DNA of 64,000 nucleotides from a virus, in IMG/VR virus record IMGVR_UViG_3300029267_002434; one strand, given 5' to 3'. This document shows, piece by piece, positions 9,117 to 55,190 of the stretch (the stretch's first letter is position 1; every line of letters starts with the position of its first letter). The notes beneath the pieces are model-generated. The model worked only from the letters and a program-made list of their open reading frames with translations, ran no database searches and was not told where the DNA came from. The translations under genes were made by a program, and so were the position numbers.

Positions 9117-9770
9117 ATGGAAAAGAAAGATCTCAAGAAACTGGCTAAGGAAATGAACAAGGTTATGGGACTGGACCCGGCGATCGATCTCAAATTGGAC
9201 GCCGAAAAACTCGAGGACTATATCAAGAAAAGCCTAGATGAGGTGTATGATACTGATATCGAACCGGAGAACGAAGGGGATGATTGTTTTTCCGACGCAG
9301 CGGTGAAGACGCTGGCTGAATTGGGGCACGAATACGCTCAGAAGTACCTCGAAAAGCAAGATGAAGGCGAAGAGGAGCCTGAGCCTGAGCCTGAAGAGAA
9401 GAAACCCTCCAGGCGCTCGAGCAGCAAGGGCAAGAAGAAGGAAGAGCCCAAGAAGGAAGAGAAACCTTCACGTAGCAAGGGCAGCAAGAAAGAGGAGCCG
9501 AAACAGTCCAAGAAATCTGACAAAGAGCCTACGACACGAAAGATGACGCGGCTCGATTCTATTGTTCAGGGCATCGCCAACGCTCACAAACAAAAGAAGA
9601 ATTGGGAGTTGGATGAAATCACCAAAATTACCAATGAACTCTACTCCTCCAACGGCGGCAAAGAAAACCACCGTGAGGCGAAGTTCTTTGTGAATATCGC
9701 TATCCAATGTATGGCAGGCATTGGAGTAGTAGAATTCAACAAAGAAAAAGAACATGTGAAGTTCGCCTAA
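9117..9770 (+). CDS. hypothetical protein with central Lys/Glu/Ser low-complexity tract
   Basis: SD AGAGGAGGA. The central tract is EEPEPEPEEKKPSRRSSSKGKKKEEPKKEEKPSRSKGSKKEEPKQSKK. No family recognised. Confidence 0.6.
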   Translation: MEKKDLKKLAKEMNKVMGLDPAIDLKLDAEKLEDYIKKSLDEVYDTDIEPENEGDDCFSDAAVKTLAELGHEYAQKYLEKQDEGEEEPEPEPEEKKPSRRSSSKGKKKEEPKKEEKPSRSKGSKKEEPKQSKKSDKEPTTRKMTRLDSIVQGIANAHKQKKNWELDEITKITNELYSSNGGKENHREAKFFVNIAIQCMAGIGVVEFNKEKEHVKFA

Positions 9771-10216
9771 TGGGACGTTGGAAAAGTATACCTGGATACC
9801 CTGGCTATTGGGCTTCGGCCCAAGGTCAGGTTCTAGGTAAAAAGGGCGGAGTTCTCAAGCCGAAGCTTAAGAAATATGCATATGTTGATTTGTATAGGAA
9901 CAACAAGAGGGCGCGTAGGCCCATCCACCAATTGGTACTGGAGGTTTTCGGACCTCCTAGGCCTTCTCCTAACCACTTCCCGAATCACAAAGATGGTAAC
10001 AAATTGAATAATAGTATTTCTAATCTTGAATGGCTCACTCCTAAAGAGAATATGAGACACGCTGTGAAAACTGGTCTGTTCGTTATCCCATCCGGTCCCA
10101 AGAATCATTGGCATGGAAAGGCTCAGTCCGCTTCTCATATTCTAAAAAGATCAGAAGCCATGAGAGGTAAGAAAAACCATCAGTATAAACATGGGAGGTA
10201 TTCTGCTTATGAGTAA
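9770..10216 (+). CDS. free-standing HNH homing endonuclease (NUMOD4-like N-terminus + HNH_3-like core)
   Basis: The N-terminus WKSIPGYPGYWASAQGQV is the typical W-x-I-x-G-Y-x-Y-x-V/A-S-x-x-G start. The core is HKDGNKLNNSISNLEWLTPKENMRHA. ATG at 9770 overlaps the upstream TAA. Confidence 0.8.
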   Translation: MGRWKSIPGYPGYWASAQGQVLGKKGGVLKPKLKKYAYVDLYRNNKRARRPIHQLVLEVFGPPRPSPNHFPNHKDGNKLNNSISNLEWLTPKENMRHAVKTGLFVIPSGPKNHWHGKAQSASHILKRSEAMRGKKNHQYKHGRYSAYE

Positions 10217-11288
10217 GCATGGTTTATCAGTGCGTGGTGATTGTTTATACTGCCCGCTTCCCCTCTCCATAGACCCATACAACAACTGCCTCGTAGACTG
10301 CCACCATTGTTATATGAGGCGGTTGAATCATGTATGGGGCAAAGAACTCAAGCCGTTGGATCCAGAAGCTTTGAGAAAGAAGCTCACCAACGGCTTGAAA
10401 AACAAGAATCCCAAATCCTCGATGGCCAACTGTCTCGCCAGAAAGAAAACTATACGGATTGGCAACAAGGCTGATGGCTTCCAACCGATCGAGGACGATC
10501 TGCATATCACGGCCCAAGTGATACAGATCTTGGAAGAACTGGAGTGGAGTTATGTTATCCAAACAAGATTCCTATCAAGAGTCTGGGAATTTGGCTCCGA
10601 CTATCGAGACGCCCTCTCTCCAAGAAACGCCGTTATTCTTCCGATTATTAGTCCTGGCCTTGAGATGGACTGGGAGATCCTCGAGAGAAGAAGAACGGAT
10701 CCGCCAAGGGTTAGACTGCGGATCCTCAAAGAGTTTCGAGAGCGCGGATTCCACGGCGGCGTCAATGGAGAGCCTTTCATTCCTGGGTATCATACGGTGC
10801 AGGATTTCGAGGACACGCTCAAAACGCTCAGGGACTATGGGATCGACCGGTACAACACATACAACTTACACTTGAATGATTACGTTCTGAAACGACTAAA
10901 CGATATCAATTTGGATATCGAGAAGATTTGGACCATGAATCAGGACAAGAATTGGAAGCCGATCCAACAGCAGCTTTGCGATCTTGCGAAAAAACATAAT
11001 ATCATACTGGGCTGTCCCGACTTTGTAAACACCGGACCTGACTGGAAGGAGGAGGCTAATACTTGTTGCGGCATAGACGTTCCGAATCCAAGCCGATTTA
11101 ATACCCATTACTTCAAGAAGACTATGCAGGCCGGAGTCAAGGCCCCTAACGCTGTACTAACGCAGCATTGGGAGGGTATCGGGGAGTTTGAGGAGGCCTT
11201 GAAGATAGTCCAAGGGAAACGATCCGATATGTATACAATGGCTGATGCTGGATTGGTTAAGAAGCCCAAGAAAGGATTGATAGTATAA
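10209..11288 (+). CDS. radical SAM enzyme, SPL/SplB-like (COG1533-type), paralogue 1
   Basis: CxxxCxxC cluster NCLVDCHHCY, preceded by CLYCPLPLSIDPY. Same layout as the 15609 gene. Confidence 0.65.
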   Translation: MSKHGLSVRGDCLYCPLPLSIDPYNNCLVDCHHCYMRRLNHVWGKELKPLDPEALRKKLTNGLKNKNPKSSMANCLARKKTIRIGNKADGFQPIEDDLHITAQVIQILEELEWSYVIQTRFLSRVWEFGSDYRDALSPRNAVILPIISPGLEMDWEILERRRTDPPRVRLRILKEFRERGFHGGVNGEPFIPGYHTVQDFEDTLKTLRDYGIDRYNTYNLHLNDYVLKRLNDINLDIEKIWTMNQDKNWKPIQQQLCDLAKKHNIILGCPDFVNTGPDWKEEANTCCGIDVPNPSRFNTHYFKKTMQAGVKAPNAVLTQHWEGIGEFEEALKIVQGKRSDMYTMADAGLVKKPKKGLIV

Positions 11289-11458
11289 TGGAAACGTATT
11301 GGGAACAAGTACAGCAGTTGCATGATCAATTAACCCACGTTGCTATTTCTTGCTTAGGCAAGGATCCCTTCGATCGGGACAAAGCCAAGTTTACTATAGC
11401 GGTCCTCGATGGACCAATGGAAGGAGAAATTGTCACTGTTGAAATGAGGATAGTATGA
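11288..11458 (+). CDS. small hypothetical ORF (56 aa), not in the ORF track
   Basis: Hand-translated: METYWEQVQQLHDQLTHVAISCLGKDPFDRDKAKFTIAVLDGPMEGEIVTVEMRIV. The ATG overlaps the upstream TAA and its TGA overlaps the next ATG (11455), exactly filling the gap. Confidence 0.45.
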   Translation: METYWEQVQQLHDQLTHVAISCLGKDPFDRDKAKFTIAVLDGPMEGEIVTVEMRIV

Positions 11459-12162
11459 AAACAAATACGATATTAGCTGGAGACGCTCAGATGATGAGCG
11501 AGGATTACATACCTGACGGTTCGATTGACTTTGTTTTGACGTCTCCTCCGTATGATGGTGCGAACACTCCGAAGGGCGCTGCTCCGAACTTATACCAGTA
11601 CGGCTTTGAGTTGAGTCGGGTGTTGAAAGATGGGGGTGTTTGCGTCTTGGTCATACAGGACATAGTCCACAACGGCATCAAGCGCGGCCACTCCATTCGA
11701 ATCCCGTCCTATTGGATAGATCACACCAAGCTAAATCTTTGGGACGATTATATCTATTGGCGCGGAGGGCAGGAGGGGTATTGGTGGAAGAATCGGATCC
11801 GCAAAGACCACGACTATATGTGGATCTTCGTCAACAATGCGAACAAACCTAAAACCTTCAACAAGATCCGCTACTCCAATCAGGGCTCTATCTTTGATTA
11901 CCGAACCGAGAAGCGGAAGACCAATTTGAGGCGTCACAAAAAAGAGAAAGGCAAGCTATACCCGGTTGCGTTTCCTTTCCAGTTGGCTGAGGATATGATC
12001 CGGATCTTCACCAAAAAGGATGACTTGGTACTAGATCCTTTTTGCGGGTACGGAACGACTCTCGCCGCAGCGAAGGTTTTGAATAGACGGTACTTGGGAA
12101 TAGAACTGTTGGAGCACGTAGCATCGATCGCTACCAAGCACCTGGAGGCTGGATTACTATGA
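11455..12162 (+). CDS. DNA methyltransferase, beta-class N4-cytosine/N6-adenine type (SPPY catalytic motif)
   Basis: Motif IV VLTSPPYDG lies N-terminal. The SAM-binding motif I LDPFCGYGTTLAAAKVLNRRYLGIEL lies C-terminal. Confidence 0.85.
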   Translation: MKTNTILAGDAQMMSEDYIPDGSIDFVLTSPPYDGANTPKGAAPNLYQYGFELSRVLKDGGVCVLVIQDIVHNGIKRGHSIRIPSYWIDHTKLNLWDDYIYWRGGQEGYWWKNRIRKDHDYMWIFVNNANKPKTFNKIRYSNQGSIFDYRTEKRKTNLRRHKKEKGKLYPVAFPFQLAEDMIRIFTKKDDLVLDPFCGYGTTLAAAKVLNRRYLGIELLEHVASIATKHLEAGLL

Positions 12163-12980
12163 GTTTAGGACTGAGAAAAACTCCTCGGCTCTTGGACCAA
12201 TGGAAATCCCTCGCCAATATAATAAACAATCCTGTTGAGTATTGGGATTTCCCTACCACAATGCTCGCCTTTGCTAAATCTTTGAAGAACTCTCAGCTTT
12301 TGCTTATGGAAGGCGGCGTTGTGTTCAGGATAAGGGGAAAGCAAGCGACATTGATCAATTGGTTCGGGGAAGAGGAGGATATGCGAGCAGCGGTATTTGC
12401 TCTTCAATCTCAAGATATCAAAGTGAAAAGCCTTAATTGGGAGAAGACTATGTTCTTCCCGGACAAGGGAGCGAAGGTCAAAGAATTCATTGTCTATGGC
12501 TTATATGACTTTGATCTTTCTACACAATGCCACTCGAGCAAGACCCGTGAAACTTTGAGGAGGAAGCACCGCCAGGGCAAGAAACGGTACACCGTAGGAC
12601 ATAAGCTGCCAGCTAGAGAGAAGATGGATGAACTATTTGCTAAATGGGCTGAGGAAGCCAGCAAGCGTCATTTTATGGTTGTTAAAGGACATTACCAAGC
12701 CTATATCGATCTACTTTACAAAGGCTTTGCTAGCTGTATTTGCTTTTGGGAAGGCGAGGAACTGATAGGCATATGCGGTTACGAGGTTTTCGGCAGCTGT
12801 GCGCAAATAACTTTGATGAAGAATCGAAAGGCGCACAGTTGTTTCCCAGTTTACTTTTGGGTTGCGTCTGTAGAGACTATATCCCGGCACTATAACAAAG
12901 TATTTTGCGGATCAACCGCCGAGGGGCTCAAGCAACAGTTAGGTTTCCTGCCTTATGATACCTATAAGTTGAAGCTTTAG
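12159..12980 (+). CDS. hypothetical; FemAB/DUF2156-like (GNAT-fold acyl/aminoacyl-transferase-like), paralogue of 18464..19270
   Basis: The C-terminal GSTAEGLKQQLGFLPYDTYKL resembles the G-x-GL-x-x-FK-x-x-x-x-P ending of FemAB/lysyl-PG-synthase-C-type proteins. It shares this and its overall length with the 18464 ORF. The family call is tentative. Confidence 0.35.
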   Translation: MSLGLRKTPRLLDQWKSLANIINNPVEYWDFPTTMLAFAKSLKNSQLLLMEGGVVFRIRGKQATLINWFGEEEDMRAAVFALQSQDIKVKSLNWEKTMFFPDKGAKVKEFIVYGLYDFDLSTQCHSSKTRETLRRKHRQGKKRYTVGHKLPAREKMDELFAKWAEEASKRHFMVVKGHYQAYIDLLYKGFASCICFWEGEELIGICGYEVFGSCAQITLMKNRKAHSCFPVYFWVASVETISRHYNKVFCGSTAEGLKQQLGFLPYDTYKLKL

Positions 12981-12982
12981 TA

Positions 12983-13069
12983 TTTTTATCCTTAAAAATA
13001 AATATTTCCTTTATTAAAAACCATTTTATAGCCCTAGTTCAAGTCGGATTAGGGCTATATTTATGGGCG
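12983..13069 (+). repeat. 87-nt intergenic element, copy A (AT-rich box + 9-bp hairpin); putative terminator/promoter cassette
   Basis: Matches 26917-27003 at 82 of 87 positions by hand alignment. The hairpin is ATAGCCCTA (13028-13036) / TAGGGCTAT (13050-13058). It sits between a stop (12980) and an SD+ATG (13084). Confidence 0.75.
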
Positions 13070-13083
13070 GAAGGAGGGCCGGG

Positions 13084-13926
13084 ATGACGATTCGATTGAT
13101 ACCAAATACTCCAGTGGAGGAGTATACCGTTAAAGGGCAAACGGTTTTAGTCAAAAGGGAAGATCGCGCTACACCTTATCCCGGTCCTCCATTTTCTAAA
13201 GTACGGGGGTTGGTGCCCTACCTATGGGATTTAAAAGAGTTGGGATTCACAACCATAGGCTACGTGGAAACCTCTGTCTCTATGGCCGGATGGGGAGTCG
13301 CGTGGGCGTGCTATCACCTCGGCCTCGAGTGCATTTTATGGGACCCTCAATACGAGAAGACGCCACCGCTGCTTCGCTACCATCGGAAACAATGGAAGAA
13401 GTTCAACCCTAAGATTCTACCGATTAAGGCAGGGATGGCAGCGGTAAACTATAATATAGCAGCTAAAGAGGTTCGCAAGACACCGGATTGTTTCTTGCTT
13501 CCGCTCGGATTGCCTCTCCCTTATACCGTAATGGAAACTGCTAAGATCGCCCGGGAGACGTGGAATAGCAATGTATTTCGTACCGTAGTAACATCGGTCG
13601 GTAGTGGTACAATATGTGCGGGACTCTTGAAAGGACTCCCTGGAGATGTTAAGATATTCGGAGTAATGACCAGAACCGGTTCATCAAAACACAAAGCAAA
13701 AACGATCCATAAAAAAGCACACATCCCTATCGGCGGTTTTTTAGGGAACAAAAACCTGAGTGTAGTAGATCCGGGATGGAGATATGCTGACCGAAGCTCT
13801 TGGCCGTGTCCTTTCCCATGCCACCCTTGGTATGATCGGAAGGCGTGGCAATGGTTAGACCAATGGATGGGGATGCAGCAAATGGATGGGCCAGTAATGT
13901 TTTGGAATATCGGGAGGGTGCGATGA
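13084..13926 (+). CDS. PLP-dependent enzyme, fold type II (ACC deaminase / D-cysteine desulfhydrase-like)
   Basis: VLVKREDRATPYPGPPFSKVRGL matches the KR(E/D)D...GNKxRKL lysine region. The Gly loop is TSVGSGTICAGLL. ATG 13084 follows GGAAGGAGG. The 13063 ATG in the ORF track lies inside the repeated non-coding element. Confidence 0.6.
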   Translation: MTIRLIPNTPVEEYTVKGQTVLVKREDRATPYPGPPFSKVRGLVPYLWDLKELGFTTIGYVETSVSMAGWGVAWACYHLGLECILWDPQYEKTPPLLRYHRKQWKKFNPKILPIKAGMAAVNYNIAAKEVRKTPDCFLLPLGLPLPYTVMETAKIARETWNSNVFRTVVTSVGSGTICAGLLKGLPGDVKIFGVMTRTGSSKHKAKTIHKKAHIPIGGFLGNKNLSVVDPGWRYADRSSWPCPFPCHPWYDRKAWQWLDQWMGMQQMDGPVMFWNIGRVR

Positions 13927-14141
13927 ACCGCATAAGTACAGACAACTACCCGTTACTGAAAGCGTTCGCTGATGCGTTGAAGCTGACTATTTTAGAAGAG
14001 ATCGACGTTGAAGGGAAGTGCAAGATATTGCAAGGCGAGTGCAAGTGCCCAAAGTGCCAAATCGCAAATATGCCTACAGAAGATTTGATCAACGATTCGG
14101 TGGACCGGTACGGGAAATCTTTCAATTGGAGGAAATTGTAA
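13923..14141 (+). CDS. hypothetical small protein (72 aa) with CxC/CxxC cluster
   Basis: ATGA overlap with the upstream stop. Contains CKILQGECKCPKCQ. TAATG overlap with the next gene. Confidence 0.5.
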   Translation: MNRISTDNYPLLKAFADALKLTILEEIDVEGKCKILQGECKCPKCQIANMPTEDLINDSVDRYGKSFNWRKL

Positions 14142-14623
14142 TGCACGTAATTGAGACTGAGCGTAGGCCACGATGGAACGACCATTGGATGAAGGTCGCG
14201 CGGGTAATCTCCGAGCGATCCACCTGCTTGCGGCGTCAGATCGGAGCGGTACTGGTACGGGATAAGAGAATCATTGCCTCAGGGTACAATGGAGTCCCGA
14301 CCAAGATCGATCACTGTTTAGATCTCGGTTGCCGAAAAGACGCGGCTGGTGCGGAAAGTGGTAAGGGACTCGAGGTCTGTCCAGGATTGCACGCAGAACA
14401 AAATTGTTTGATTCAATGCGCGAGATATGGTATAGTAGCGGAAGGCGCTACGTTGTATTGTACTCTATCTCCTTGTATCCTTTGTGCTAAGGAGGTTATC
14501 AACGCTGGCATCCACATGGTGGTCTATGACGCCGCAGATAAATATCCCGATAAGCTCGGGCTGGAGATGCTAAGTCAATCCGAAGTCGCTTTGATGGCGT
14601 GGGAGTGCGACAATGCGCAATAA
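14141..14623 (+). CDS. deoxycytidylate (dCMP) deaminase
   Basis: Zinc motifs CPGLHAEQNC and SPCILCAKEVINAGI. The N-terminal WNDHWMKVARVISERSTCLRRQIGAVLV is typical of dCMP deaminase/ComEB. Confidence 0.9.
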   Translation: MHVIETERRPRWNDHWMKVARVISERSTCLRRQIGAVLVRDKRIIASGYNGVPTKIDHCLDLGCRKDAAGAESGKGLEVCPGLHAEQNCLIQCARYGIVAEGATLYCTLSPCILCAKEVINAGIHMVVYDAADKYPDKLGLEMLSQSEVALMAWECDNAQ

Positions 14624-15077
14624 AGAAGTTATTACAGAGGCCAGGAAGCGCGGCTTTGTCACAGGGTCTAAAGTGTTCGGAGGCTACGACCGGGAGCTGT
14701 CTGATATAGACATAATGGTTCCTTACGACTTCCACTATAAGTTCGACGACATGCTCCGGATATGCGAAGGGGCGCGCTATTTGCCCCATAGCTATAGGGA
14801 TGCAACTACCACCAGTATTTATATCCCACTCAACAATAAAGACTACAATATCATAATCGCTATGGACGCGGCGACGTTCAGAATTTGGCGTGAGGCAACA
14901 AAGATTCTTATTGCTGCGGTGAACGCCAGCGATAGTTTAAAGGAGGTGGTGTATTTCGATAAGCAAACAAGAGTAGATATGTTCAAGACTTTCCGATGGA
15001 CGCTCGGGGATCTAAGCTTGCGGCTGAAAGCGCCTGAGCCGGTAGATCAACCATCGGAAGACGACATTCCATTTTAG
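14613..15077 (+). CDS. Pol-beta-superfamily nucleotidyltransferase-domain protein
   Basis: The minimal NTase signature G-S ... D-x-D is present: VTGSKVFGGYDRELSDIDIMV. Confidence 0.5.
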   Translation: MRNKEVITEARKRGFVTGSKVFGGYDRELSDIDIMVPYDFHYKFDDMLRICEGARYLPHSYRDATTTSIYIPLNNKDYNIIIAMDAATFRIWREATKILIAAVNASDSLKEVVYFDKQTRVDMFKTFRWTLGDLSLRLKAPEPVDQPSEDDIPF

Positions 15078-15088
15078 AGGAGGAGCGT

Positions 15089-15607
15089 ATGAATATTAAA
15101 GGCTCAGTACGAGGCGAAAAACTGTTCGAGTTTTTTGAGGGACTTAGAAGTGATGGAAAAGTATTGGGACCAGCGGTTTGGGAATGGTGGCATTTAAAAG
15201 TCAGCAAGCCCTATGATAAAGGAACCGTTCTGTCTTATATAGATGAATTGGGAACCGGCGTTCCTGTCCTGGGCGGAGTTAGTAATGCCGAATTCAACAC
15301 CAAGCTCTGTAAGATACTAAAACCGGGAAGCAACATTCAAGCCCTTTATGAGTATAAGAATCGTCTACTAACCAAGGGGTTTGGCATTGCTCAAGAACAA
15401 GGAATCAAAAACTTCCGGGAGGAAGAAACTAGAAACCACCTAACTGCTATGAGCAACCATTACGATGGTATCGAGGAGATATGGGGACGCGATGCGAGAA
15501 TCTATCGGGATAGTAAAGATGGACTATTCAAGGCCGATATCAAAATGGATCGTGCAGGGGGCTGGGAGAAAACAATGACCTTTGTTCAGAAGAATTGGGG
15601 CAGGTAA
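15089..15607 (+). CDS. hypothetical protein (172 aa)
   Basis: SD GAGGAGGAG. No family recognised and no P-loop. Confidence 0.55.
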   Translation: MNIKGSVRGEKLFEFFEGLRSDGKVLGPAVWEWWHLKVSKPYDKGTVLSYIDELGTGVPVLGGVSNAEFNTKLCKILKPGSNIQALYEYKNRLLTKGFGIAQEQGIKNFREEETRNHLTAMSNHYDGIEEIWGRDARIYRDSKDGLFKADIKMDRAGGWEKTMTFVQKNWGR

Positions 15608-15608
15608 T

Positions 15609-17012
15609 ATGAATTACTACGAATTGAGAGCGGAAGTTGCGAAGCTTGTGCCAAGAATGATCAATCTTGCCGGAGTGAAGGGGAAGATCGAATTGGTGAA
15701 GGAGAAAGGGCGCAAGACCAACTATAAAGAGTTCAGCCTGGACGTACAGGGCTTCCAGGATAAGCGTCGGCTCCTGAATCTGGAAGAGGTGTCCAGCTTC
15801 TTAGAAATCTCGCTCAGAGCAGTGGCGTGCCCGATGCCTTTCAATATGGATGTGTGGGACGGCATAATCTGCCCCTACAATTGTGCGTATTGTTACGCTA
15901 ACAACTTCCGCGCCTCGTTGTATACTTCTTTCTTCGATAACAGCAAATCGATGGGCCTTCGGCATTGTAACCCGAAGTACTACAAGAAGGAAATGGACAA
16001 TCTTTTCAAGCTCAGAGGCAAGGATCCCCATAGCGTAAAAGGTGATATCCAAAAGGCCATCGCTAAACAGATCCCTCTCCGTATGGGCATTCGGTTCGAG
16101 GACTTTCTGAAACCGGAGAAGAAAAAGGGCGTCAGTCTCGAGATGATGAGGTATCTCGCGGACAACGATTATCCTTTAATGATTAACACCAAGTCGGACC
16201 TGCTCGGGGAGGACGCCTATCTTAAAGCGTTGAGCGACAACGAAGCAGGTACTGCTGTACATATAACCATGATATCCAACGACCGGGAGTTCACTCGTAA
16301 GATCGAGCCCGGAGCGCCCACCTTCGAGGCTCGCGTGGAATCCGCAAAGCGCCTAACCGCTGCAGGCGTCAGGGTCGTTGCTCGGATCGAGCCCTACCTT
16401 GTCTTTTTAAATGACGATCCGGATGCGGTACGGGAATATATGGATAAGTGTTGGGAGGCTGGTATTCGCCATATCACCTTCGACACCTACTCCTACTCCG
16501 CAAAAAACCCGGGAATCCGCAAAGCCTTTTTGAAGGCCGGATATGATTTTGATCGCCTCTTCCTCCTCGGATGCGATAGTCAAGGCCTGGGCTCGATCCT
16601 TCTCGATAAGTTTATGGACCTGTTCCGGGAGTACGGCTTCAAGTGCTCCACTTTCGATCTTGGTTGTGTTCCCGGGAACAACCAGATGGTCTGTTGCGAG
16701 GTCGGCGATCTATTCCAAGGCAGCGGTTGGAATTATGGCTGCGTTGTATCCGCTATCCGGTTTATCAAAAACAAGGACAGACCGGTTGGATGGGTTGAAT
16801 TTGAAGAGTACGTCAACAAGAACGGGGGATTTCTCAGCGAGTCCCTGCGCTACGCTATGCACCAACTGTGGAATTGGGACGGTAATCTTTCCTACCGCGT
16901 CCAGTGGGGGCAAGGTATCGAGCCGATTGGAACGGACAGAGCCGGAATCGTATGGGAGTACCGGCAACACGAGGACTTCCGGGAGCAATTGCTGAAGGAG
17001 TTGTTATCGTGA
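15609..17012 (+). CDS. radical SAM enzyme, SPL/SplB-like, paralogue 2
   Basis: CxxxCxxC cluster ICPYNCAYCYANNF, preceded by ACPMPFNMDVW. This parallels CPLPLSIDPY...CLVDCHHCY in the 10209 gene. ATG 15609 directly follows the upstream stop. Confidence 0.7.
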   Translation: MNYYELRAEVAKLVPRMINLAGVKGKIELVKEKGRKTNYKEFSLDVQGFQDKRRLLNLEEVSSFLEISLRAVACPMPFNMDVWDGIICPYNCAYCYANNFRASLYTSFFDNSKSMGLRHCNPKYYKKEMDNLFKLRGKDPHSVKGDIQKAIAKQIPLRMGIRFEDFLKPEKKKGVSLEMMRYLADNDYPLMINTKSDLLGEDAYLKALSDNEAGTAVHITMISNDREFTRKIEPGAPTFEARVESAKRLTAAGVRVVARIEPYLVFLNDDPDAVREYMDKCWEAGIRHITFDTYSYSAKNPGIRKAFLKAGYDFDRLFLLGCDSQGLGSILLDKFMDLFREYGFKCSTFDLGCVPGNNQMVCCEVGDLFQGSGWNYGCVVSAIRFIKNKDRPVGWVEFEEYVNKNGGFLSESLRYAMHQLWNWDGNLSYRVQWGQGIEPIGTDRAGIVWEYRQHEDFREQLLKELLS

Positions 17013-17221
17013 GAACCAAAGGCCTAAAAAACGTCACCGTTCGTATAGGACGCACTTACAATTTAGGCAATTACGAATCGGTGCGGATCGACGTGGGATG
17101 CGAACTCGAGGCGCAAAAAAACGATTCCAATGAAGATATCGTTGAACGCGCCAGCGAGTTTTGTGAGGACGCATTACTCAAACTTGAGAAGACCTGCGGG
17201 GTAGACTACTATGGCGATTAA
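17009..17221 (+). CDS. hypothetical small protein (70 aa)
   Basis: GTG at 17009 forms a GTGA overlap with the radical SAM stop. The longer 16904 start in the ORF track would overlap that gene by 109 nt. Confidence 0.4.
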   Translation: MRTKGLKNVTVRIGRTYNLGNYESVRIDVGCELEAQKNDSNEDIVERASEFCEDALLKLEKTCGVDYYGD

Positions 17222-17234
17222 GGAATACACAGTG

Positions 17235-17369
17235 ATGAGTAATAATGAGGAGTATCGTTGCTCGGTGTGCGGCGATGCCGAAATGCTCGTTGTTGATGAG
17301 GAGGGAGAGTTTATATGCACCGAATGTCTTTTTGAACGAGAATGCGAAGTGGACGAAGGAGATTGGTAA
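17235..17369 (+). CDS. small zinc-ribbon ORF (44 aa), not in the ORF track
   Basis: Hand-translated: MSNNEEYRCSVCGDAEMLVVDEEGEFICTECLFERECEVDEGDW (CxxC...CxxC). It stops 1 nt before the next ATG (17371). Confidence 0.4.
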   Translation: MSNNEEYRCSVCGDAEMLVVDEEGEFICTECLFERECEVDEGDW

Positions 17370-17370
17370 A

Positions 17371-17529
17371 ATGGCAAAAGGACTTAATATGTTTTGTAAC
17401 AAACAAACTTGGGCGAACGACGAATACAGAAACGCATACGACGAAGTTGAGTGGCCGGAGCATCCAAAGGATTGCAATTGCGCTCGTTGCTTCACAGAGA
17501 GGATGGATCGAAGTGAAAAAGAAACCTGA
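17371..17529 (+). CDS. small hypothetical ORF (52 aa)
   Basis: An internal ATG of the 17245 ORF-track ORF gives MAKGLNMFCNKQTW...CNCARCF. It abuts the zinc-ribbon ORF. Confidence 0.35.
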   Translation: MAKGLNMFCNKQTWANDEYRNAYDEVEWPEHPKDCNCARCFTERMDRSEKET

Positions 17530-17633
17530 ACCCTACTATGTTCCGGCTCAAGGATTTGACGATGCGCAACTTGGAAGAATCCTTGAGCGGCTCAGTCAGC
17601 AACTAGATTATCTCATAAAGGCGGTGGAGGCGA

Positions 17634-18467
17634 ATGAAAGTATCAAAGAAGATCGAGACGCTGTTTGCCCATGCAGTAGCCCTCGAACAATCGGGTAGAC
17701 TGCGCAATACTGTTTATTGCATTGAGGACGAGATCTATATCTTGAACCCAGACAATACCGTACTGCTCCAGATAAACGTAGGGGAGCAAGTATTTGATGA
17801 GCCTGTATCGTTCCGGGCCAACGACTACGAGAGCAATAAGTTCTATGTAGAGGACGGTAAAATTGTCTTCGAGACAAGGGCTGAGGGCTTTGTCCGAAAG
17901 AAGCGGTGCGGCGTCCCGGAAGCCAATCCAGAGGACGTAAGGGACATGTTCAATGAATTCGAGCGCGCTCCGCGCAGTGCTCCTACTGTAAAGCTTCATA
18001 AAGGAGTCCTGAAGGTGTTGGACGATAACCTCTCTCATATTGAGTTCTCTGGCGATGAGAACGGGCTGCAGATCATCCAGCGTAACATTTACGATGGATC
18101 GACAGTAGATATAACGCGGGAAGCGCCCAAGGGCTTGATGGAAGTGACGAAGGATATCTTCCCAACGGAGTTCGGGCCGATCGGTATGCGAACAAATGAT
18201 TTCTTTGCTTTGTTCGTGTTTTTTGATACAATAGAATTCTCATTTACGGAATGGGGGTACTGTACGATCCTGGCAAGCAAAGCAGGAATAGTGATGCAAG
18301 GATTGGTCAGCTGGTGCCTCTACGATGAAATGGGAATAGTAGACGCCATTATAGAGGGGGTGAGAAAGAATGGGCGGAAAAAGTCGGAAGAGCGGGTCGG
18401 TGAGCAAGAAGCTAGTGGACCGCCTCGTAGAACAAAACAAAAAGGACAAAGCCGGAGGACAAAGTGA
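17634..18467 (+). CDS. hypothetical protein (277 aa) with basic C-terminal tail
   Basis: SD GGAGGCGA precedes the ATG. No family recognised. Confidence 0.6.
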   Translation: MKVSKKIETLFAHAVALEQSGRLRNTVYCIEDEIYILNPDNTVLLQINVGEQVFDEPVSFRANDYESNKFYVEDGKIVFETRAEGFVRKKRCGVPEANPEDVRDMFNEFERAPRSAPTVKLHKGVLKVLDDNLSHIEFSGDENGLQIIQRNIYDGSTVDITREAPKGLMEVTKDIFPTEFGPIGMRTNDFFALFVFFDTIEFSFTEWGYCTILASKAGIVMQGLVSWCLYDEMGIVDAIIEGVRKNGRKKSEERVGEQEASGPPRRTKQKGQSRRTK

Positions 18468-19270
18468 TAAACCATCCAGTGGATCCAAAGGCTTACGAAT
18501 ATTTAAGGACTCTGAGCAATCGTGGTCGTAGGCCTAATTTCTGGACATCGGCTGAGTATTTCAATCGCGCAGGATGGAGGGATAACTCATTTGACGGATG
18601 GGTTTGGATCGAGGACGAATCCGGCAAGTGTATGCTCCCTCCTTTAATCCAGCGAGGAGCGACGCCCCAAACTCAATTTCCAATGGGCATCGATTATGTA
18701 TGGAGCGACTTTCCAAATTGGGGACAGCCGGATTGGAATAAGTGGTTCCTAGATTTTGAATACCTCTACCGTCCCAAGTCCTTCCATAAGATGGAGGGCA
18801 AGCGGTGGATGAAGTTCCGTAAGAACATCCGCAAGTGGCCGCGTAGTTTGCCTGATAAGATTGAGCCTGAATATACCTTCGCCACTCCCATCAAATCGAA
18901 TGTTGAAGAGTTGTTTGTCGAGTGGATGGGTACGTTCGGGGAGGGCCTGTCTTTTTACGATCCTGATGTTATGGCTGATTACGTCTTCCACCCACCTCAT
19001 CACCAAGCCGCGTACTTATATGCGGGTGGAAAGCTGATGGGGATGAATATATGGGACTCCAACCATATGTTCATCAACTACCGGTACGCTATACATCGGG
19101 AGGAGCCCTTTCTAAATGAGTACTTGCGGTATTGTTTCTATATGGACAAGTGGGAGTCCTTGACTATTGTGAATGACGGAGGTTGTTGCGGAAGCAAAGG
19201 TTTAAAACAATTCAAAGATACCCTCAATCCCTGGAGAATAAGGGAGGTGTACACATGGGAGGCAAAATGA
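18464..19270 (+). CDS. hypothetical; FemAB/DUF2156-like, paralogue of 12159..12980
   Basis: The C-terminal GCCGSKGLKQFKDTLNPWRIREVYTW parallels GSTAEGLKQQLGFLPYDTYKL of the 12159 ORF. GTGA overlap with the upstream stop. Confidence 0.35.
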   Translation: MINHPVDPKAYEYLRTLSNRGRRPNFWTSAEYFNRAGWRDNSFDGWVWIEDESGKCMLPPLIQRGATPQTQFPMGIDYVWSDFPNWGQPDWNKWFLDFEYLYRPKSFHKMEGKRWMKFRKNIRKWPRSLPDKIEPEYTFATPIKSNVEELFVEWMGTFGEGLSFYDPDVMADYVFHPPHHQAAYLYAGGKLMGMNIWDSNHMFINYRYAIHREEPFLNEYLRYCFYMDKWESLTIVNDGGCCGSKGLKQFKDTLNPWRIREVYTWEAK

Positions 19271-20283
19271 AAAGAGCAGATCTGTTGGAAGCCCTGGAGC
19301 GAGTAGCCCCGGGATTAGCTCAGAAAGAAAGCATTGAACAAGGCGATTGTTATGTGTTCCTCGGAGATCGAGTCGTGACCTTCAATGATGAAGTAGCGGT
19401 TTCGTTCCCTATTGATATCGGTTTCGAAGGAGCCGTCAACGCCAAGAAACTATATGAACTTGTGAAGCGGATGAAAACCAAAGAAATCACTCTAACCCCC
19501 AGCAAAGAGGAGCTGAAAATCAAGGGCGGCAAGGGCAAGGGTGGTATCCGGCTCCAGGAAAGTATTGCCCTCCCTATCGATGAGTTCAAAGGGGAGAAGG
19601 AGTGGGTGCCCTGTCCCCACGGCTTTCCTAAAGCCCTCCGGTTCGTTTTGTTCACCGTGAGCCAAGAGGAGCATCTGGGAGTTTGTACTGGAGTTCACGT
19701 GAGCGATACCTTCATGGAATCGACTGATAACTTCCGCGTGACCCGAAAGTATTATGAAGACCTGGAAATGCCTTTCGAGGACTTTGTGCTTCCCTCCGGA
19801 TCTGCCAAGCACCTAACCAACTACGACTTAGGCGAGATCTACGTTGACGGTTCGTGGGCGCACTTCCGAGCGTTAGACAATACTGAGATCTCCGCTCGAA
19901 TCTACAACGAAGAATATCCGAACTTGGACCGGTTCATCGATACAAAGGGCGGCGCTTGTATAGCTTTGCCTGATAACTTTCTGGAACTGGTAGCCAGAGC
20001 GGGGGTCTTCTCCGAGATGGACGAATCTCAGCCCTTGGAAAAGGTAAAGGTATCCCTCACCGATGACAAGATAACCGTTCGAGGCCGGAACGAACAAGGG
20101 TGGTTTGAAGAAGCGGCATCGACGGAGTACGATGGAGCGGATATTGACTTTATCTCTTCCCCAAAGCATTTGGCCGAAATGTACGCGGTGACCCCCAATC
20201 TGCGGATCATTGATGATAGGATCGTCTTCGAGAAGGAAGATGATTTTGTTTATATCACGGCCATGATTCAAGAAGACGACTAA
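19267..20283 (+). CDS. DNA polymerase sliding clamp, beta-clamp (DnaN)-like
   Basis: The N-terminus MKRADLLEALERVAPGLAQKESIEQGDCYVFLGDRVVTFNDEVAVSFPI...AVNAKKLYELVKRMKTKEITL follows the DnaN domain-I pattern. The 338-aa length fits three domains. ATGA overlap with the upstream gene. Confidence 0.55.
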   Translation: MKRADLLEALERVAPGLAQKESIEQGDCYVFLGDRVVTFNDEVAVSFPIDIGFEGAVNAKKLYELVKRMKTKEITLTPSKEELKIKGGKGKGGIRLQESIALPIDEFKGEKEWVPCPHGFPKALRFVLFTVSQEEHLGVCTGVHVSDTFMESTDNFRVTRKYYEDLEMPFEDFVLPSGSAKHLTNYDLGEIYVDGSWAHFRALDNTEISARIYNEEYPNLDRFIDTKGGACIALPDNFLELVARAGVFSEMDESQPLEKVKVSLTDDKITVRGRNEQGWFEEAASTEYDGADIDFISSPKHLAEMYAVTPNLRIIDDRIVFEKEDDFVYITAMIQEDD

Positions 20284-20289
20284 CCAAAA

Positions 20290-20365
20290 GCGGTGGTGGT
20301 GTAACTGGTAGCATACTTGGCCCCCAGCTAAGAGGTGTCGGTTCGAGTCCGATCCTGCCGCTCCA
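20290..20365 (+). tRNA. tRNA-like gene, best read as tRNA-Gly (anticodon CCC) with encoded CCA and non-canonical features
   Basis: Hand fold. The acceptor is GCGGTGG/CTGCCGC (7 bp, 2 G-U), with discriminator T and CCA. The D arm is GTGT/GCAT with an AACTGGTA loop. The anticodon stem is CTTGG/CTAAG with loop CCCCCAG. The T arm is GTCGG TTCGAGT CCGAT. Oddities are C at position 33 and one extra C between the T stem and acceptor stem. Confidence 0.6.
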
Positions 20366-20382
20366 ATCCGAAAGGAAAGGCA

Positions 20383-21105
20383 ATGGAATTGAAACCTGTA
20401 TATTTGGAAGCAAGGGACATACCGGATGCTTGGTTCCGGTTGATATACGCCCTGGTAGACGGGGCTGGATTTTCCTATGGCATAGACCAAGGCTCTTTTC
20501 AAAACGAGTTCAAGCGCCTTGAATTCGATTGGGTTACTGTTTACATCAAATTCCCCCATGGAGAGTGCCGACCAGTATTAAATCCTGCTTTGGGTCTGTC
20601 CGACCCAATCCCGCCAGATTTCGATATTGGATCCTACGCAGCGGACTACATCTTGACCGGAAACAAAAAGCCAGACGAGGCCTATACTTACGGACAGCGC
20701 CTGTCTAATTACAACTTAAACGCGGGCTCCTTCGACCAGATCCTATATTGGGTTGATAAGTTGAAGAAGGCCCCGCGTACCAACCAGGCTATTATGACCA
20801 TAGCCGTTCCAGAGGACGGACTGCTCGAGGACCCTCCTTGTCTGCGTCATATTGATATGAGAATACGGGAGGGCGTTCTGATCTTCTATCCGTACTTTCG
20901 ATCCTGGGACCTGTGGAGTGGCTTCCCGGCGAACCTCGGGGGTATTTCGATCCTCCAGCAGTTCATGGCGGAGGAGATCGGGGTAGAAGCGGGGCCTATG
21001 ATTTGCTCCAGTAAGGGCTTGCATTTGTATTCATATGTATGGGAATTCTCAGCACAGATCCGAGGCCGGAACGTAGGTGAGTTCTTGAAAGAGGTGGCTG
21101 CATGA
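20383..21105 (+). CDS. thymidylate synthase (ThyA) family protein: dUMP methylase or hydroxymethylase
   Basis: DPPCLRHIDMRI carries the catalytic Cys. YFRSWDLWSGFPANLGG matches ThyA RSxD...PxN with Asn retained. GLHLY matches the ThyA H-x-Y. The protein is short (240 aa) and divergent. ATG 20383 lies downstream of the tRNA, whereas the 20335 start in the ORF track lies inside the tRNA. Confidence 0.7.
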   Translation: MELKPVYLEARDIPDAWFRLIYALVDGAGFSYGIDQGSFQNEFKRLEFDWVTVYIKFPHGECRPVLNPALGLSDPIPPDFDIGSYAADYILTGNKKPDEAYTYGQRLSNYNLNAGSFDQILYWVDKLKKAPRTNQAIMTIAVPEDGLLEDPPCLRHIDMRIREGVLIFYPYFRSWDLWSGFPANLGGISILQQFMAEEIGVEAGPMICSSKGLHLYSYVWEFSAQIRGRNVGEFLKEVAA

Positions 21106-22331
21106 AAGGATTCTTTAGTACGTCAGAGATAAGAAAACCAAAGAAGACTATTACCAGTCCTCAATGCGGCAGGTGCGGCCTACATAAAGAATGCCGATCG
21201 CCAAAGATGGAGGTGGGTGGTAAAAAGGAAATCCCCATCTACTGGTTTGCTGAGGCCCCGGGAGCCCTCGAGGATAAACGGGGCACTCAACTTTGCGGCA
21301 AGGCCGGGAAGTACCTCCGGCGGATGGTCGAACGGATTGCCGATATTGATATTGAGGATTGCTTTAAGGACAACGCCGTTCGATGCCGACCGCCAGAGAA
21401 TCGAGATCCCAAGGATCATGAGATCGAATGCTGCCGCCCGAACGCAATTAAATCGATCAAAGAAGCCCAGCCCCATATCATAATACCGATGGGTACTTAT
21501 GCGAACCTAAGCTTATTGAAGCATACTTTCAAGAAGGACATCGGTACTGTTTCCAAATGGCAAGGGGCGACGATCCCAGACTATACTTTCAATGCTTGGA
21601 TATGTCCTACCTTTCATCCATCTTACATCATGAGGGAAACCACTCCTGCATCGGCCAAAGTCATAATGGAACGCGATATTGCTAGGGCCGCAAGGTTATT
21701 AGAGGTCCCTTTACCGGAGTGGCGAGATGATGAGAAATGCGTAGAGATATTGAAGCATCCGGATGAGATCCGAGCGTATATCAAGGAACTGATCCGATCT
21801 AAACATACCTACCCTTTTGCCGCGTTCGATTACGAAACCACTGGTTTAAAACCTCATAGGAAAGGGCATGATATCAAGTGCGTCTCTATTTGTACTGAGG
21901 CCTACCGATCGGTAGCGTTTCCTATGCTGGATGAGATACGCCCCGTCTTCAAGAAGTTCCTACGAGATCCGGACATTTGGAAAGTAGCGCAAAACCTTAA
22001 GTTTGAGGAAGCCTGGTCGCGGGTCATATTAGGACAGGAGGTAGCCGGATGGTTATTTGATACTATGGTAGGTTCTCATATACTTGACCACCGAGAGAAT
22101 ATTACTTCTCTCAAACACCAAGTCTACCGTCGATACGGAGTAGCAGATTACGACTCCCACCTCAATTCCTTATTGAAAGGGACGAAACCGGGAGCCAATG
22201 CTTTCAACCAGATTGAAAAGATAGCGATCCGCGACCTATTGATTTATTGCGGACTGGACGCGCTTTACGAATACAGATTAGCCCTAGACGAAATGGAGGA
22301 ACTCAGACCAAAATGGATAGAGCGACGATAG
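21102..22331 (+). CDS. family-4 UDG-like domain fused to DnaQ-type 3'-5' exonuclease (N-terminal portion of a family A DNA polymerase)
   Basis: UDG family 4 motifs are AEAPGALEDKRGTQLCGKAGKYL and ICPTFHPSYIMR, with Fe-S-type Cys (CGRCGLHKEC, VRCRPP, CCRP). The exonuclease motifs are Exo I AAFDYETTGL and Exo III CGLDALYEY. Confidence 0.8.
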   Translation: MKGFFSTSEIRKPKKTITSPQCGRCGLHKECRSPKMEVGGKKEIPIYWFAEAPGALEDKRGTQLCGKAGKYLRRMVERIADIDIEDCFKDNAVRCRPPENRDPKDHEIECCRPNAIKSIKEAQPHIIIPMGTYANLSLLKHTFKKDIGTVSKWQGATIPDYTFNAWICPTFHPSYIMRETTPASAKVIMERDIARAARLLEVPLPEWRDDEKCVEILKHPDEIRAYIKELIRSKHTYPFAAFDYETTGLKPHRKGHDIKCVSICTEAYRSVAFPMLDEIRPVFKKFLRDPDIWKVAQNLKFEEAWSRVILGQEVAGWLFDTMVGSHILDHRENITSLKHQVYRRYGVADYDSHLNSLLKGTKPGANAFNQIEKIAIRDLLIYCGLDALYEYRLALDEMEELRPKWIERR

Positions 22332-55189: not shown

Positions 55190-55190
55190 T

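Follow-up and report, generated by a model that had tools for sequence, protein, structure and literature searches.

An uncultured phage with a genome of ~106 kb carries, among its replisome genes, an island of enzymes that we give an even chance of carrying out post-replicative DNA base hypermodification, in an amino-acid-derived variant possibly entered from Gly-tRNA. What we demonstrate is homology, fold, gene order and conservation; the base acted on, the amino acid used and all the chemical steps proposed below are inferred from these. The original prediction had grouped the PLP, radical SAM and GNAT-like open reading frames (ORFs) of this locus with phage thymidine hypermodification enzymes. 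Homology to gp52 and gp53 of Pseudomonas phage M6, together with the genomic context of a putative transferase, DUFa, bears this grouping out, and the link to hypermodification now rests on homology and gene context, beyond enzyme class.

The window is a stretch of 64,000 nucleotides, and the analysis as a whole covered 84 kb of the genome. As had been described, the genes at 10209-21105 form a co-oriented run on the + strand, which is the strand of every feature given below, and the proposed translational coupling is seen in start/stop overlaps at 11288, 11455-11458, 12159-12162, 14613-14623, 18464-18467 and 21102-21105. A 56-aa ORF (11288..11458), to which we give no function, is coupled to the genes on both sides. 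The neighbours of the island are replication and repair genes (UDG, exonuclease, RecA, FEN and Mre11-like). Flanking it is a fusion of a family-4-like UDG domain and a 3'-5' exonuclease (21102..22331), and the exonuclease part is the N-terminal half of a split PolA.

The gene order rSAM1-[cargo]-rSAM2-PCNA-like clamp-DUFb-beta clamp-UDG/exonuclease-PolA is common to 33 IMG/VR loci. The two radical SAM enzymes, the PCNA-like clamp and DUFb make up a core engine present in at least 33 related viral contigs, with rSAM1 in 29/33 and DUFb in 30/33. Tailoring genes that vary between loci fill the slot between rSAM1 and rSAM2. In this phage they encode an SPPY methyltransferase, DUFa, the PLP enzyme, a dCMP deaminase and a possible nucleotidyltransferase, alongside ORFs of unknown function; in relatives the cargo includes PLP enzymes, Amidoligase_2, FAD oxidoreductase (in L006), aldo-keto reductase and DNA methyltransferases. 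The PLP, flavin oxidoreductase and amidoligase classes are also found in hypermodification clusters (Lee et al.).

We confirmed the fold-type II assignment of the PLP enzyme (13084..13926). It is a homologue of M6 gp52 along its entire length (36% identity, tblastn E 9e-47; E 8e-45 when searched against the phage collection), matches phrog_7093 at 1.5e-46 and keeps the catalytic Schiff-base lysine (FSK), the invariant equivalent of gp52 K36. The functions of gp52 and gp53 have been established biochemically, and gp52 is a decarboxylase whose substrate is a DNA-linked amino acid and which produces 5-aminoethyl-dU on DNA (PMC8989533). The PLP gene is present in 14/33 relatives and follows rSAM1 immediately in 12 of these, an adjacency of radical SAM and PLP genes that resembles M6.

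Two SPL-type radical SAM enzymes had been proposed, and indeed both ORFs, rSAM1 (10209..11288) and its paralogue rSAM2 (15609..17012), contain the invariant CX3CX2C motif. rSAM1 is distantly homologous to gp53, the N-alpha-GlyT isomerase of M6: its profile aligns with gp53 at an hhalign probability of 96% (E 4e-9) over 257 columns, C-terminal Cys motif included, and four more conserved cysteines (C21, C275, C292 and C293) are consistent with a second cluster. The probability for rSAM1 against rSAM2 is 95%, and the similarity of rSAM2 to gp53 is weak (E 0.005). Both score below the gathering threshold of Pfam Radical_SAM. Their closest NCBIfam families are the uncharacterised SplB-like PA0069/Rv2578c groups, and with spore photoproduct lyase and these COG1533 proteins they share the radical SAM core motif and the occurrence of an intein-containing subgroup. 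However, they score far under the family cut-offs (45-56 bits versus 360-430), neither profile matched any PDB sequence, and their context here points to modification rather than repair. rSAM2 is the best-conserved gene of the module (52-60% identity across relatives, versus 36-44% for PolA), contains inteins in some relatives and belongs to an almost wholly viral family, with 5 MAG contigs among 185,579 species genomes.

DUFa (12159..12980) is a putative GNAT/FemAB-superfamily acyl or aminoacyl transferase and probably a tailoring enzyme. Its family has no curated model, and a few members match Acetyltransf_6 or LPG_synthase_C. DUFa genes adjoin gp52-like PLP genes in 5/5 other viral loci; 4/5 have a gp53-like radical SAM gene and 3/5 have recognisable genes for a 5-hmdU DNA kinase (HMUDK) and/or an amino acid:DNA transferase (AADT). 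Four of these loci lie outside the clade (L041 and L043-L045), with PLP proteins 44-62% identical to gp52 and radical SAM proteins 40-58% identical to gp53, and in the fifth, clade member L042, DUFa lies beside PLP and rSAM2. L041 additionally encodes HMUD2 and ADDT, L044 homologues of gp54, gp55 and gp58, and L045 ADDT and a P-loop kinase. DUFa was found in 0/33 related loci carrying the rSAM/DUF2156 core. It had been paired with DUFb as one of two paralogous FemAB/DUF2156-like ORFs. The fold was borne out for DUFb (18464-19270), but DUFa is only faintly similar to it (hhalign E 0.004), and the two are not close paralogues.

We considered whether these genes could serve repair, with no hypermodification at all: the radical SAM proteins would be DNA repair lyases acting with a repair clamp, the ThyA-like enzyme and dCMP deaminase would make dTMP, methylation would be simple, and the PLP and GNAT-like proteins would be unrelated metabolic cargo. 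The JGI label for the rSAM2 family is indeed 'DNA repair photolyase', and the SplB-like NCBIfam families and the repair genes nearby fit this account, as do the higher conservation of rSAM2 than of PolA and its inteins, elements frequent in core DNA metabolism genes. Even so, a PLP enzyme specifically homologous to one whose substrate is an amino acid linked to DNA, a match of rSAM1 to the gp53 isomerase, tailoring-type enzymes in the inter-rSAM slot of relatives and recurrence of the DUFa-PLP-rSAM trio in clusters with known hypermodification enzymes make repair an unlikely explanation.

The putative entry enzyme of the hypermodification island is DUFb (18464..19270). Its AF2 model (pLDDT 90) has a tandem-GNAT DUF2156/MprF/FemX-type fold; the top Foldseek matches were 2hqy, MprF, Sba18/Sbb17 and FemX (E 2e-11 to 2e-6, query-normalised TM 0.53-0.73, identity 10-14%), and the model also resembles DUF2156 and aa-tRNA-dependent peptide synthases. 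The Pfam score is 24.1 bits against a gathering threshold of 27.5. The model suggests a putative aminoacyl-tRNA-dependent transferase whose donor and acceptor cannot be read from the fold, a limit of the GNAT fold that the authors of the Mom study also state (PMC13219725). DUFb shares its predicted fold with the C-terminal aminoacyl-phosphatidylglycerol synthase of MprF, FemX and Sba18/Sbb17, but it is phage-encoded, has no membrane domain and lies between two sliding clamp genes. These are a PCNA-like two-domain clamp with a basic C-terminal tail (17634..18467), conserved between rSAM2 and DUFb, and a DnaN-like beta clamp (19255..20283).

The sole tRNA found in the window, a non-canonical tRNA-Gly(CCC) (20290..20365), follows DUFb at a distance of 1 kb. 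Its GlyRS identity set is intact and its CCA is encoded; the anticodon loop carries C32, C33 and G38, and one additional base precedes the acceptor stem. In the closest relative, 75/76 bases are identical, C33 included, and the flanking DNA is ~71% identical; the tRNA was not found in 32 relatives that are more distant but retain DUFb. GGG accounts for 22% of the glycine codons, so the tRNA may simply serve translation. Neither clamp nor this tRNA was part of the original prediction.

These parts suggest a route. DUFb would move an amino acid (glycine is the likeliest) from a charged tRNA onto a pyrimidine in DNA, with the odd phage tRNA-Gly(CCC) as a possible dedicated donor. The radical SAM enzymes may then form or rearrange the linkage to give a C-linked alpha-amino acid, in the way gp53 works in M6, and the PLP enzyme would decarboxylate it to an aminoalkyl base in the manner of gp52. 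The freed amine could be acylated by DUFa, comparable to the PaMx11 acetyltransferase gp48 acting on 5-NmdU, and the PCNA-like clamp may hold the island enzymes on newly made DNA. There is precedent for the first step. Mom of phage Mu is a GNAT that moves glycine from Gly-tRNAGly onto adenine N6 in double-stranded DNA (Silva et al. 2026; PMC13219725), and the proposed route for DUFb shares with it the GNAT-superfamily fold, a charged tRNA-Gly donor and a subsequent on-base rearrangement. Mom has a single GNAT domain and acts by itself, whereas DUFb is a tandem-GNAT protein accompanied by two radical SAM enzymes and by tailoring enzymes; the likeness drawn here is one of fold. The PaMx11 5-AcNmdU pathway, with the FAD lyase gp47 and the GNAT gp48, similarly offers the logic of acylating an unmasked primary amine on a modified base, and the FAD oxidoreductase of L006 occupies the same slot. 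The acetyltransferase role of DUFa is putative, however, and we found no AADT or kinase here.

The same chemistry could instead build or modify something other than DNA, with free nucleotides, small molecules, tRNAs and proteins such as a clamp or polymerase as candidates, as in the nucleoside-antibiotic pathways of PacB and Sba18 or the L/F-transferase. The proteins closest to DUFb in structure have lipids, peptides and natural products as substrates and never DNA, and the locus has tRNA-related genes, tRNA-Gly here and RtcB in L020. Yet DNA is the substrate of every homologue of the PLP enzyme and rSAM1 that has been characterised, a PCNA-like clamp belongs to the conserved core, which is coupled to replisome genes, and the variable slots are shared with DNA methyltransferases. 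We therefore find a non-DNA target improbable.

A modification of DNA might also follow the standard M6 5-NedU pathway, which comprises gp51 AADT, gp52 PLP decarboxylase, gp53 radical SAM isomerase, gp54/gp55 5-hmdU DNA kinase and gp58 dUMP hydroxymethylase (Lee et al. 2018, 2021). The ThyA-like enzyme would then be a dUMP hydroxymethylase fed by the dCMP deaminase, and a kinase and AADT encoded elsewhere, or too divergent to recognize, would phosphorylate and glycinylate 5-hmdU in DNA; rSAM1 and the PLP enzyme would complete 5-NedU, with DUFb and rSAM2 unrelated. As in M6, the island lies beside DNA polymerase and nucleotide metabolism genes. The dCMP deaminase (14141..14623; 4e-22) is inside the island, as had been proposed, and within the clade it is kept in the closest relative alone. 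The predicted divergent ThyA-family enzyme (20383..21105; Pfam 2e-12) retains the catalytic Cys together with an Asn of the dUMP type. Annotated dUMP hydroxymethylases and thymidylate synthases match it about equally well, and its best NCBIfam family, below cut-off, is the archaeal-type thymidylate synthase TIGR03283; the product may be dTMP or 5-hmdUMP. Neither of the two genes was found in any of the 33 related loci that keep the rSAM/DUF2156 core, and homologues of the ThyA-like gene occur on 11 unrelated viral contigs without any island genes. The predicted supply of 5-hmdU by these two enzymes thus found no support, and ordinary provision of dTMP is enough to explain them.

The prediction that a P-loop 5-hmdU kinase is missing stood: Walker A motifs are confined to the helicase, clamp loader, RecA and AAA_15 ORFs, and a Walker A-like string occurs in the gp32 ORF. 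HMUDK (PF18748, PF18747, PF18723) and ADDT (PF18724) were found neither in the window ORFs scanned nor among the precomputed Pfam matches for 84 of ~106 kb; the M6 proteins used as positive controls gave strong matches. The 33 relatives gave none in the representative cargo genes scanned, nor by BLAST with M6 proteins. Since neither known entry enzyme was found, the route drawn above needs an unproven first step. The M6 helical partner and Nmad5 were likewise not found in the 84 kb, and M6 differs further from this phage, where the archaeal-type ThyA-like gene lies outside the conserved module and a second radical SAM paralogue, a DUF2156-fold transferase, a PCNA-like clamp and tRNA-Gly are present instead. 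A standard M6 pathway gains from the ~22-25 kb of genome outside the search and from the HMUDK and ADDT genes of other DUFa clusters, but in known clusters the kinase and AADT adjoin the PLP and radical SAM genes. Taken with the scans above, this leaves it a small chance of being right.

The slot of the hypermodification island also holds a 172-aa ORF without a family match (15089..15607) and a possible minimal nucleotidyltransferase (14613..15077). For the latter, the GS-x11-DID motif agrees with the earlier assignment, but the Pfam match is weak (E 0.016). The predicted SPPY DNA methyltransferase (11455..12162) was confirmed; it is a member of the N6_N4 family (Pfam 1.3e-31) and of the beta class, and its target may be N4-C or N6-A. 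It is variable cargo, and 3/33 relatives carry one.

The genes at 10209-21105 probably form an island for DNA hypermodification, one related to the thymidine systems, as judged from sequence. The original prediction was largely right in what it observed and right in kind about the island, whose members are indeed atypical; its 5-hmdU supply arm and its pair of paralogous transferases fared less well. The window spans the replication-to-structural portion of the genome of an uncultured phage. Its genes occupy the plus strand as far as about 38 kb and the minus strand thereafter, and the GC skew flips at the same point. Exact-protein look-ups placed it on circularly permuted contigs of about 106 kb from several JGI and ENA metagenomes, which makes a complete genome, circular or terminally redundant, the probable reading. 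We took gene coordinates from the JGI gene calls. All genes of the region lie on the plus strand, and most junctions show overlapping start and stop codons, in line with the tight translational coupling described earlier; between the larger genes sit ORFs of 56 amino acids (11288-11458), 72 amino acids (13923-14141) and 172 amino acids (15089-15607) and three small ORFs (16952-17529). Megablast returned no cultured-phage match to the region. By tblastn against phages, the radical SAM gene rSAM1 and the putative transferase gene DUFa had no match and the second radical SAM gene, rSAM2, had two weak matches only, so this collection contains no cultured relative. The module lies between two HNH endonuclease genes, just 5′ of rSAM1 (9770-10216) and just after PolA (23996-24316).

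We scanned IMG/VR with rSAM2 (15609-17012), obtained 33 viral loci, and scored gene presence by tblastn. Besides rSAM2 itself (33/33), the loci carry a PCNA-like clamp (17634-18467; 31/33), the second putative transferase gene, DUFb (18464-19270; 30/33), rSAM1 (10209-11288), a beta clamp (19255-20283) and a UDG/exonuclease (29/33 each), and PolA (25/33). The PLP enzyme (13084-13926) is present in 14 of the 33 and the SPPY N6_N4 methyltransferase (11455-12162) in three, while the ThyA-like enzyme (20383-21105), dCMP deaminase (14141-14623), a possible minimal nucleotidyltransferase (14613-15077) and DUFa (12159-12980) were each found in none. Gene order is fixed: helicase, o217-like gene, rSAM1, zero to three variable genes, rSAM2, PCNA-like clamp, DUFb, beta clamp, UDG/exonuclease, PolA and clamp loader. 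The real unit extends beyond the set originally proposed and has clearer bounds: rSAM1, rSAM2, the PCNA-like clamp and DUFb form its clade-wide core, and the tailoring slot is swappable. Across the 33 loci, rSAM2 is 52-60% identical versus 36-44% for PolA, which argues that its function is strongly constrained. The family is also large: its profile retrieved 582 homologous proteins. It is almost confined to viral sequence: in 185,579 species genomes it appeared on just five MAG contigs, each binned to a different phylum. In some relatives, rSAM2 holds inteins (Hint/Intein_splicing Pfam) or is split by a NUMOD3/DUF559 homing endonuclease ORF (L024, 9069-9899; proteins P0105 and P0129; L025-L031); insertions of this kind usually sit in genes that are essential and highly conserved.

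The variable slot of the relatives carries PLP, Amidoligase_2, FAD oxidoreductase, aldo-keto reductase or unknown families, and PLP lies immediately 3′ of rSAM1 in 12 of the 14 relatives that have it. DUF362, RtcB, a further radical SAM protein and three classes of DNA methyltransferase occupy slots nearby. PLP enzymes, flavin oxidoreductases and amidoligases are classes reported near thymidine hypermodification clusters (Lee et al.). The closest relative, L057, has no methyltransferase or DUFa, and its tailoring slot contains a CxxCxxCC (PF03692) protein (4153-4599), so cargo turns over even at about 71% nucleotide identity. The RtcB RNA ligase, found in L020 between rSAM2 and the PCNA-like clamp (11404-12582, 4.8e-110), is a second tRNA-related element at the module position. 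In the window, the ThyA-like ORF is followed by the UDG/3′-5′ exonuclease ORF and then PolA. This PolA is split into an ORF with a UDG domain and 3′-5′ exonuclease (21102-22331) and a polymerase-domain ORF (22313-23713) that overlap by 19 nt; the UDG domain is family-4-like, with an AEAPG motif and an N-terminal Cys cluster. Phages with hypermodified thymidine have been linked to UDG-fused PolA (bioRxiv 10.1101/2025.03.26.645540).

We then considered the proposed supply of 5-hmdU by the ThyA-like enzyme and dCMP deaminase. The translation of the ThyA-like ORF contains DPPCLRH, RSWDLWSGFPAN and GLHLYSY (PPC Cys; RS.D....P.N; H.Y), and it has the catalytic Cys and the dUMP-type Asn. Its Pfam score is 47.2 bits against a cut-off of 24.3, with only the C-terminal half matching. 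It misses every NCBIfam equivalog cut-off, the best model being archaeal-type thymidylate synthase, and it lies about as far from annotated thymidylate synthases as from annotated dUMP hydroxymethylases. The two enzymes may supply 5-hmdU, or just dTMP. Both genes are shared with L057 only, and ThyA-like homologues of 40-51% identity occur in 11 viral contigs that have none of the module genes. The conserved module is independent of these two enzymes, and with neither gene in any of the 33 relatives, the supply arm is wrong or unproven.

The link to thymidine chemistry comes from Pseudomonas phage M6 and its 5-NedU pathway. The nearest cultured-phage relatives of the PLP enzyme are all gp52 proteins from M6-like phages of Pseudomonas and phages akin to them (66 records; about 36% identity over 95% of its length, E 8e-45 in the phage collection). 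A second comparison gave 9e-47 with M6 gp52, and the match to phrog_7093 was 1.5e-46. In M6, the radical SAM isomerase gp53 makes C-alpha-glycinylthymidine in DNA, and gp52, a PLP-dependent decarboxylase, turns it into 5-aminoethyl-dU (PMC8989533). The profile of the window's PLP family is that of fold type II. We aligned the window protein with gp52 and eight metagenomic homologues, and the lysine of the FSK motif, equivalent to gp52 K36, does not vary among them. This ORF is a putative gp52-type decarboxylase with a predicted Schiff-base lysine. As for the radical SAM proteins, an rSAM1 profile of 21 sequences matched gp53 over 257 columns (hhalign probability 96%, E 4e-9), extending to the conserved C-terminal Cys motif, while BLAST identity is about 22%; the profile match points to homology, not orthology. 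rSAM2 is a paralogue of rSAM1 (probability 95%) and matches gp53 weakly by profile (E 0.005). The CX3CX2C motif is invariant across homologues (C33/C37/C40 in rSAM1, C97/C101/C104 in rSAM2), and the Pfam radical SAM scores of 23.4 and 27.0, respectively, lie below the gathering value of 29.5. Each protein has four additional conserved cysteines, a pattern consistent with two clusters as in gp53, for which two have been measured (PMC8989533). Both had been called spore photoproduct lyase (SPL)-type; their profiles, run against PDB sequences at E<=10, gave chance matches only and none to SPL (PDB 4fhe). gp53 matches SPL by Phyre2 (PMC8989533), and the likeness is thus indirect, via gp53.

We searched for the enzymes that start the M6 pathway, using the Pfam families of the 5-hmdU DNA kinase (HMUDK_HMUD1 PF18748, HMUD2 PF18747, HMUDK_hel PF18723) and of the amino acid:DNA transferase, or AADT (ADDT, PF18724). 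As controls, M6 gp51 was assigned to ADDT (1.4e-46), gp54 and gp55 to HMUDK_HMUD1 and HMUDK_hel (8e-18 and 8e-56, respectively), and gp56 to Nmad5. Among the scanned window ORFs of at least 94 amino acids between 40 and 42320, none matched the HMUDK families, ADDT or Nmad5, and precomputed Pfam annotation of the flanks (7.8 kb before and 8.9 kb after the window) listed none of these either. Together, window and flanks make up all but some 22-25 kb of the genome of about 106 kb. Walker A motifs turned up in the gp32 ORF, as a motif-like string, and otherwise just in RecA, the clamp loader, the helicase and an SMC-like ATPase; the window has no small Walker A protein. The earlier remark that no P-loop 5-hmdU kinase is obvious is thereby confirmed for the window and its flanks. 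Two alternative 5-hmdU activators were set aside: the nucleotidyltransferase is missing from all 33 relatives, and a Sulfotransfer_3 family protein (37873-38568, 4.5e-8) lies 17 kb off and is missing from related loci. The latter closes the plus-strand early/replication block. To our knowledge, amino-acid-derived DNA hypermodification starts in one of two ways: on 5-hmdU, through a kinase and an AADT, or on adenine, through Mom by itself.

A candidate for a different entry is DUFb. Its AlphaFold2 model, from a 26-sequence alignment (pLDDT 90.3, pTM 0.88), has as its best Foldseek match in PDB the DUF2156 protein 2hqy (E 2e-11, TM 0.73), followed by MprF aminoacyl-phosphatidylglycerol synthase domains (3e-9), Sba18 (5e-8) and FemX (1.5e-6), and also Sbb17, which like Sba18 is a peptide synthase dependent on aminoacyl-tRNA. 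The model thus predicts a tandem GNAT fold like those of MprF-C and FemX. At the sequence level, the DUFb profile matches 2hqy at E 0.008, and its LPG_synthase_C score, 24.1 bits, is under the 27.5 gathering cut-off; Foldseek against viral models added nothing specific. The characterized proteins among the top fold matches all take aminoacyl-tRNA as donor, and 2hqy has no assigned function. DUFb is flanked by two clamps. The ORF 5′ of it was modelled (AF2 pLDDT 83) as a clamp of the PCNA/9-1-1 type, with two domains and a basic, disordered tail, and Foldseek matched it to PCNA and 9-1-1 at 1e-9 (TM 0.5-0.6, about 255 columns); it has no sequence-level family match, and a profile search of PDB sequences yielded nothing useful. 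The ORF 3′ of DUFb is a beta clamp by profile comparison with DnaN structures (5e-19). Hhalign of the two clamp families shows no relationship, and duplication was dismissed; the phage apparently encodes two different clamps. Both are conserved in the clade, where the PCNA-like one accompanies rSAM2 and DUFb.

The sole tRNA in the window, tRNA-Gly(CCC) at 20290-20365 on the plus strand, lies 1 kb downstream of DUFb (ARAGORN, Rfam), and no further tRNA was found in 16.7 kb of flanks. It keeps G1-C72, C2-G71, G3-C70, U73, C35 and C36, which we take to be bacterial GlyRS identity elements, and its CCA is encoded. Its anticodon loop reads C32-C33-CCC-A37-G38; U33 is near-universal in tRNAs. C32 could pair with G38, leaving a 5-nt loop, and one additional base separates the T stem from the acceptor stem. 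L057 has a tRNA at the same site that is identical at 75 of 76 bases, oddities included, in flanking DNA of about 71% identity, and the unusual sequence therefore appears to be under selection. It is absent from the 32 more distant relatives, and its anticodon arm has no exact match in IMG/VR. That the tRNA serves translation is possible since GGG makes up 22% of glycine codons. The tRNA is no passenger of a ThyA-like cassette, as the 11 ThyA-like loci have no tRNAs. The M6 and PaMx11 pathways both use glycine. Furthermore, Mom of phage Mu modifies DNA with glycine from Gly-tRNAGly (PMC13219725) and shares with DUFb the GNAT superfamily and a proposed tRNA-donor logic. By this analogy, a tRNA-Gly beside DUFb is suggestive, though not probative, of DUFb using the charged tRNA-Gly(CCC) as donor.

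DUFa had been paired with DUFb as a paralogous FemAB-like transferase. The relation is faint (profile-profile E 0.0042, probability 8%, collinear over 126 columns), and "paralogous" is too strong a word for it. DUFa belongs to no curated family; a full HMMER scan gave 88 cluster representatives. It has no LPG_synthase_C match itself, one of 50 family members does (4.8e-4), and Acetyltransf_6 and LPG_synthase_C matches are scattered through the family. Its profile found nothing useful among PDB sequences, and it is no divergent AADT, being unrelated to gp51 (hhalign E 0.06). Homologues occur in five viral loci, and a gp52-like PLP gene adjoins in all five. L041 and L043-L045, outside the clade, have a PLP gene 44-62% identical to gp52 and a gp53 orthologue of 40-58% identity; L041 also has HMUD2 (1e-27) and ADDT, L045 has ADDT and a P-loop kinase, and L044 has homologues of gp54, gp55, gp58 and gp62. 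In L042, from the window's own clade, DUFa and PLP are followed by a 138-amino-acid ORF, rSAM2, the PCNA-like clamp and DUFb. DUFa thus recurs alongside 5-NedU enzymes. In PaMx11, the gp48 acetyltransferase acts on the amine unmasked on 5-NmdU; by analogy, DUFa would acylate the amine freed by the PLP decarboxylase.

Compared with M6, the module keeps the downstream enzymes, and the known entry enzymes were undetected in the scanned regions; its other members are a clamp, a further radical SAM enzyme and a protein with the canonical fold of aminoacyl-tRNA transferases. We infer all of the chemical steps that follow. A widespread clade of uncultured phages would bypass both 5-hmdU phosphorylation and AADT: a FemX/MprF-type transferase would load an amino acid from a charged tRNA straight onto DNA, the donor here being glycine from a dedicated phage tRNA-Gly ill-suited to translation. 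The two SPL-like radical SAM enzymes would forge or rearrange the bond between base and amino acid on the PCNA-like clamp, a platform that may tether the modifying enzymes to DNA. Exchangeable PLP, FAD, amidoligase, GNAT and methyltransferase genes would diversify the product, and the final base or bases would be undescribed. That the entry chemistry is genuinely new, with aminoacyl-tRNA-dependent loading and radical SAM bond formation in place of kinase and AADT, is a tentative proposal that we consider rather unlikely. If real, it would be a third entry route with new radical SAM chemistry on DNA and the second case of tRNA-dependent DNA modification, with perhaps the first phage tRNA dedicated to such a purpose. 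With the minimal conserved gene set defined, heterologous reconstitution is feasible.

Outside the module, a protein with a MazZ-like dATP/dGTP diphosphohydrolase N-terminal domain (36290-36649, Pfam 1.8e-19), which may remodel nucleotide pools, adjoins a weak HAD-like hydrolase (35719-36321); we saw no PurZ-like gene among the window ORFs scanned. A minus-strand cluster of MptE-like, GT-D, Sulfotransfer_2 and GT2 genes at about 57250-62100, within the structural module (precomputed Pfam, L037), may serve glycan synthesis or virion glycosylation. Two giant unannotated minus-strand ORFs, 42320-48634 (2104 amino acids) and 48638-55291 (2217 amino acids), probably encode tail/fibre proteins or injected proteins.
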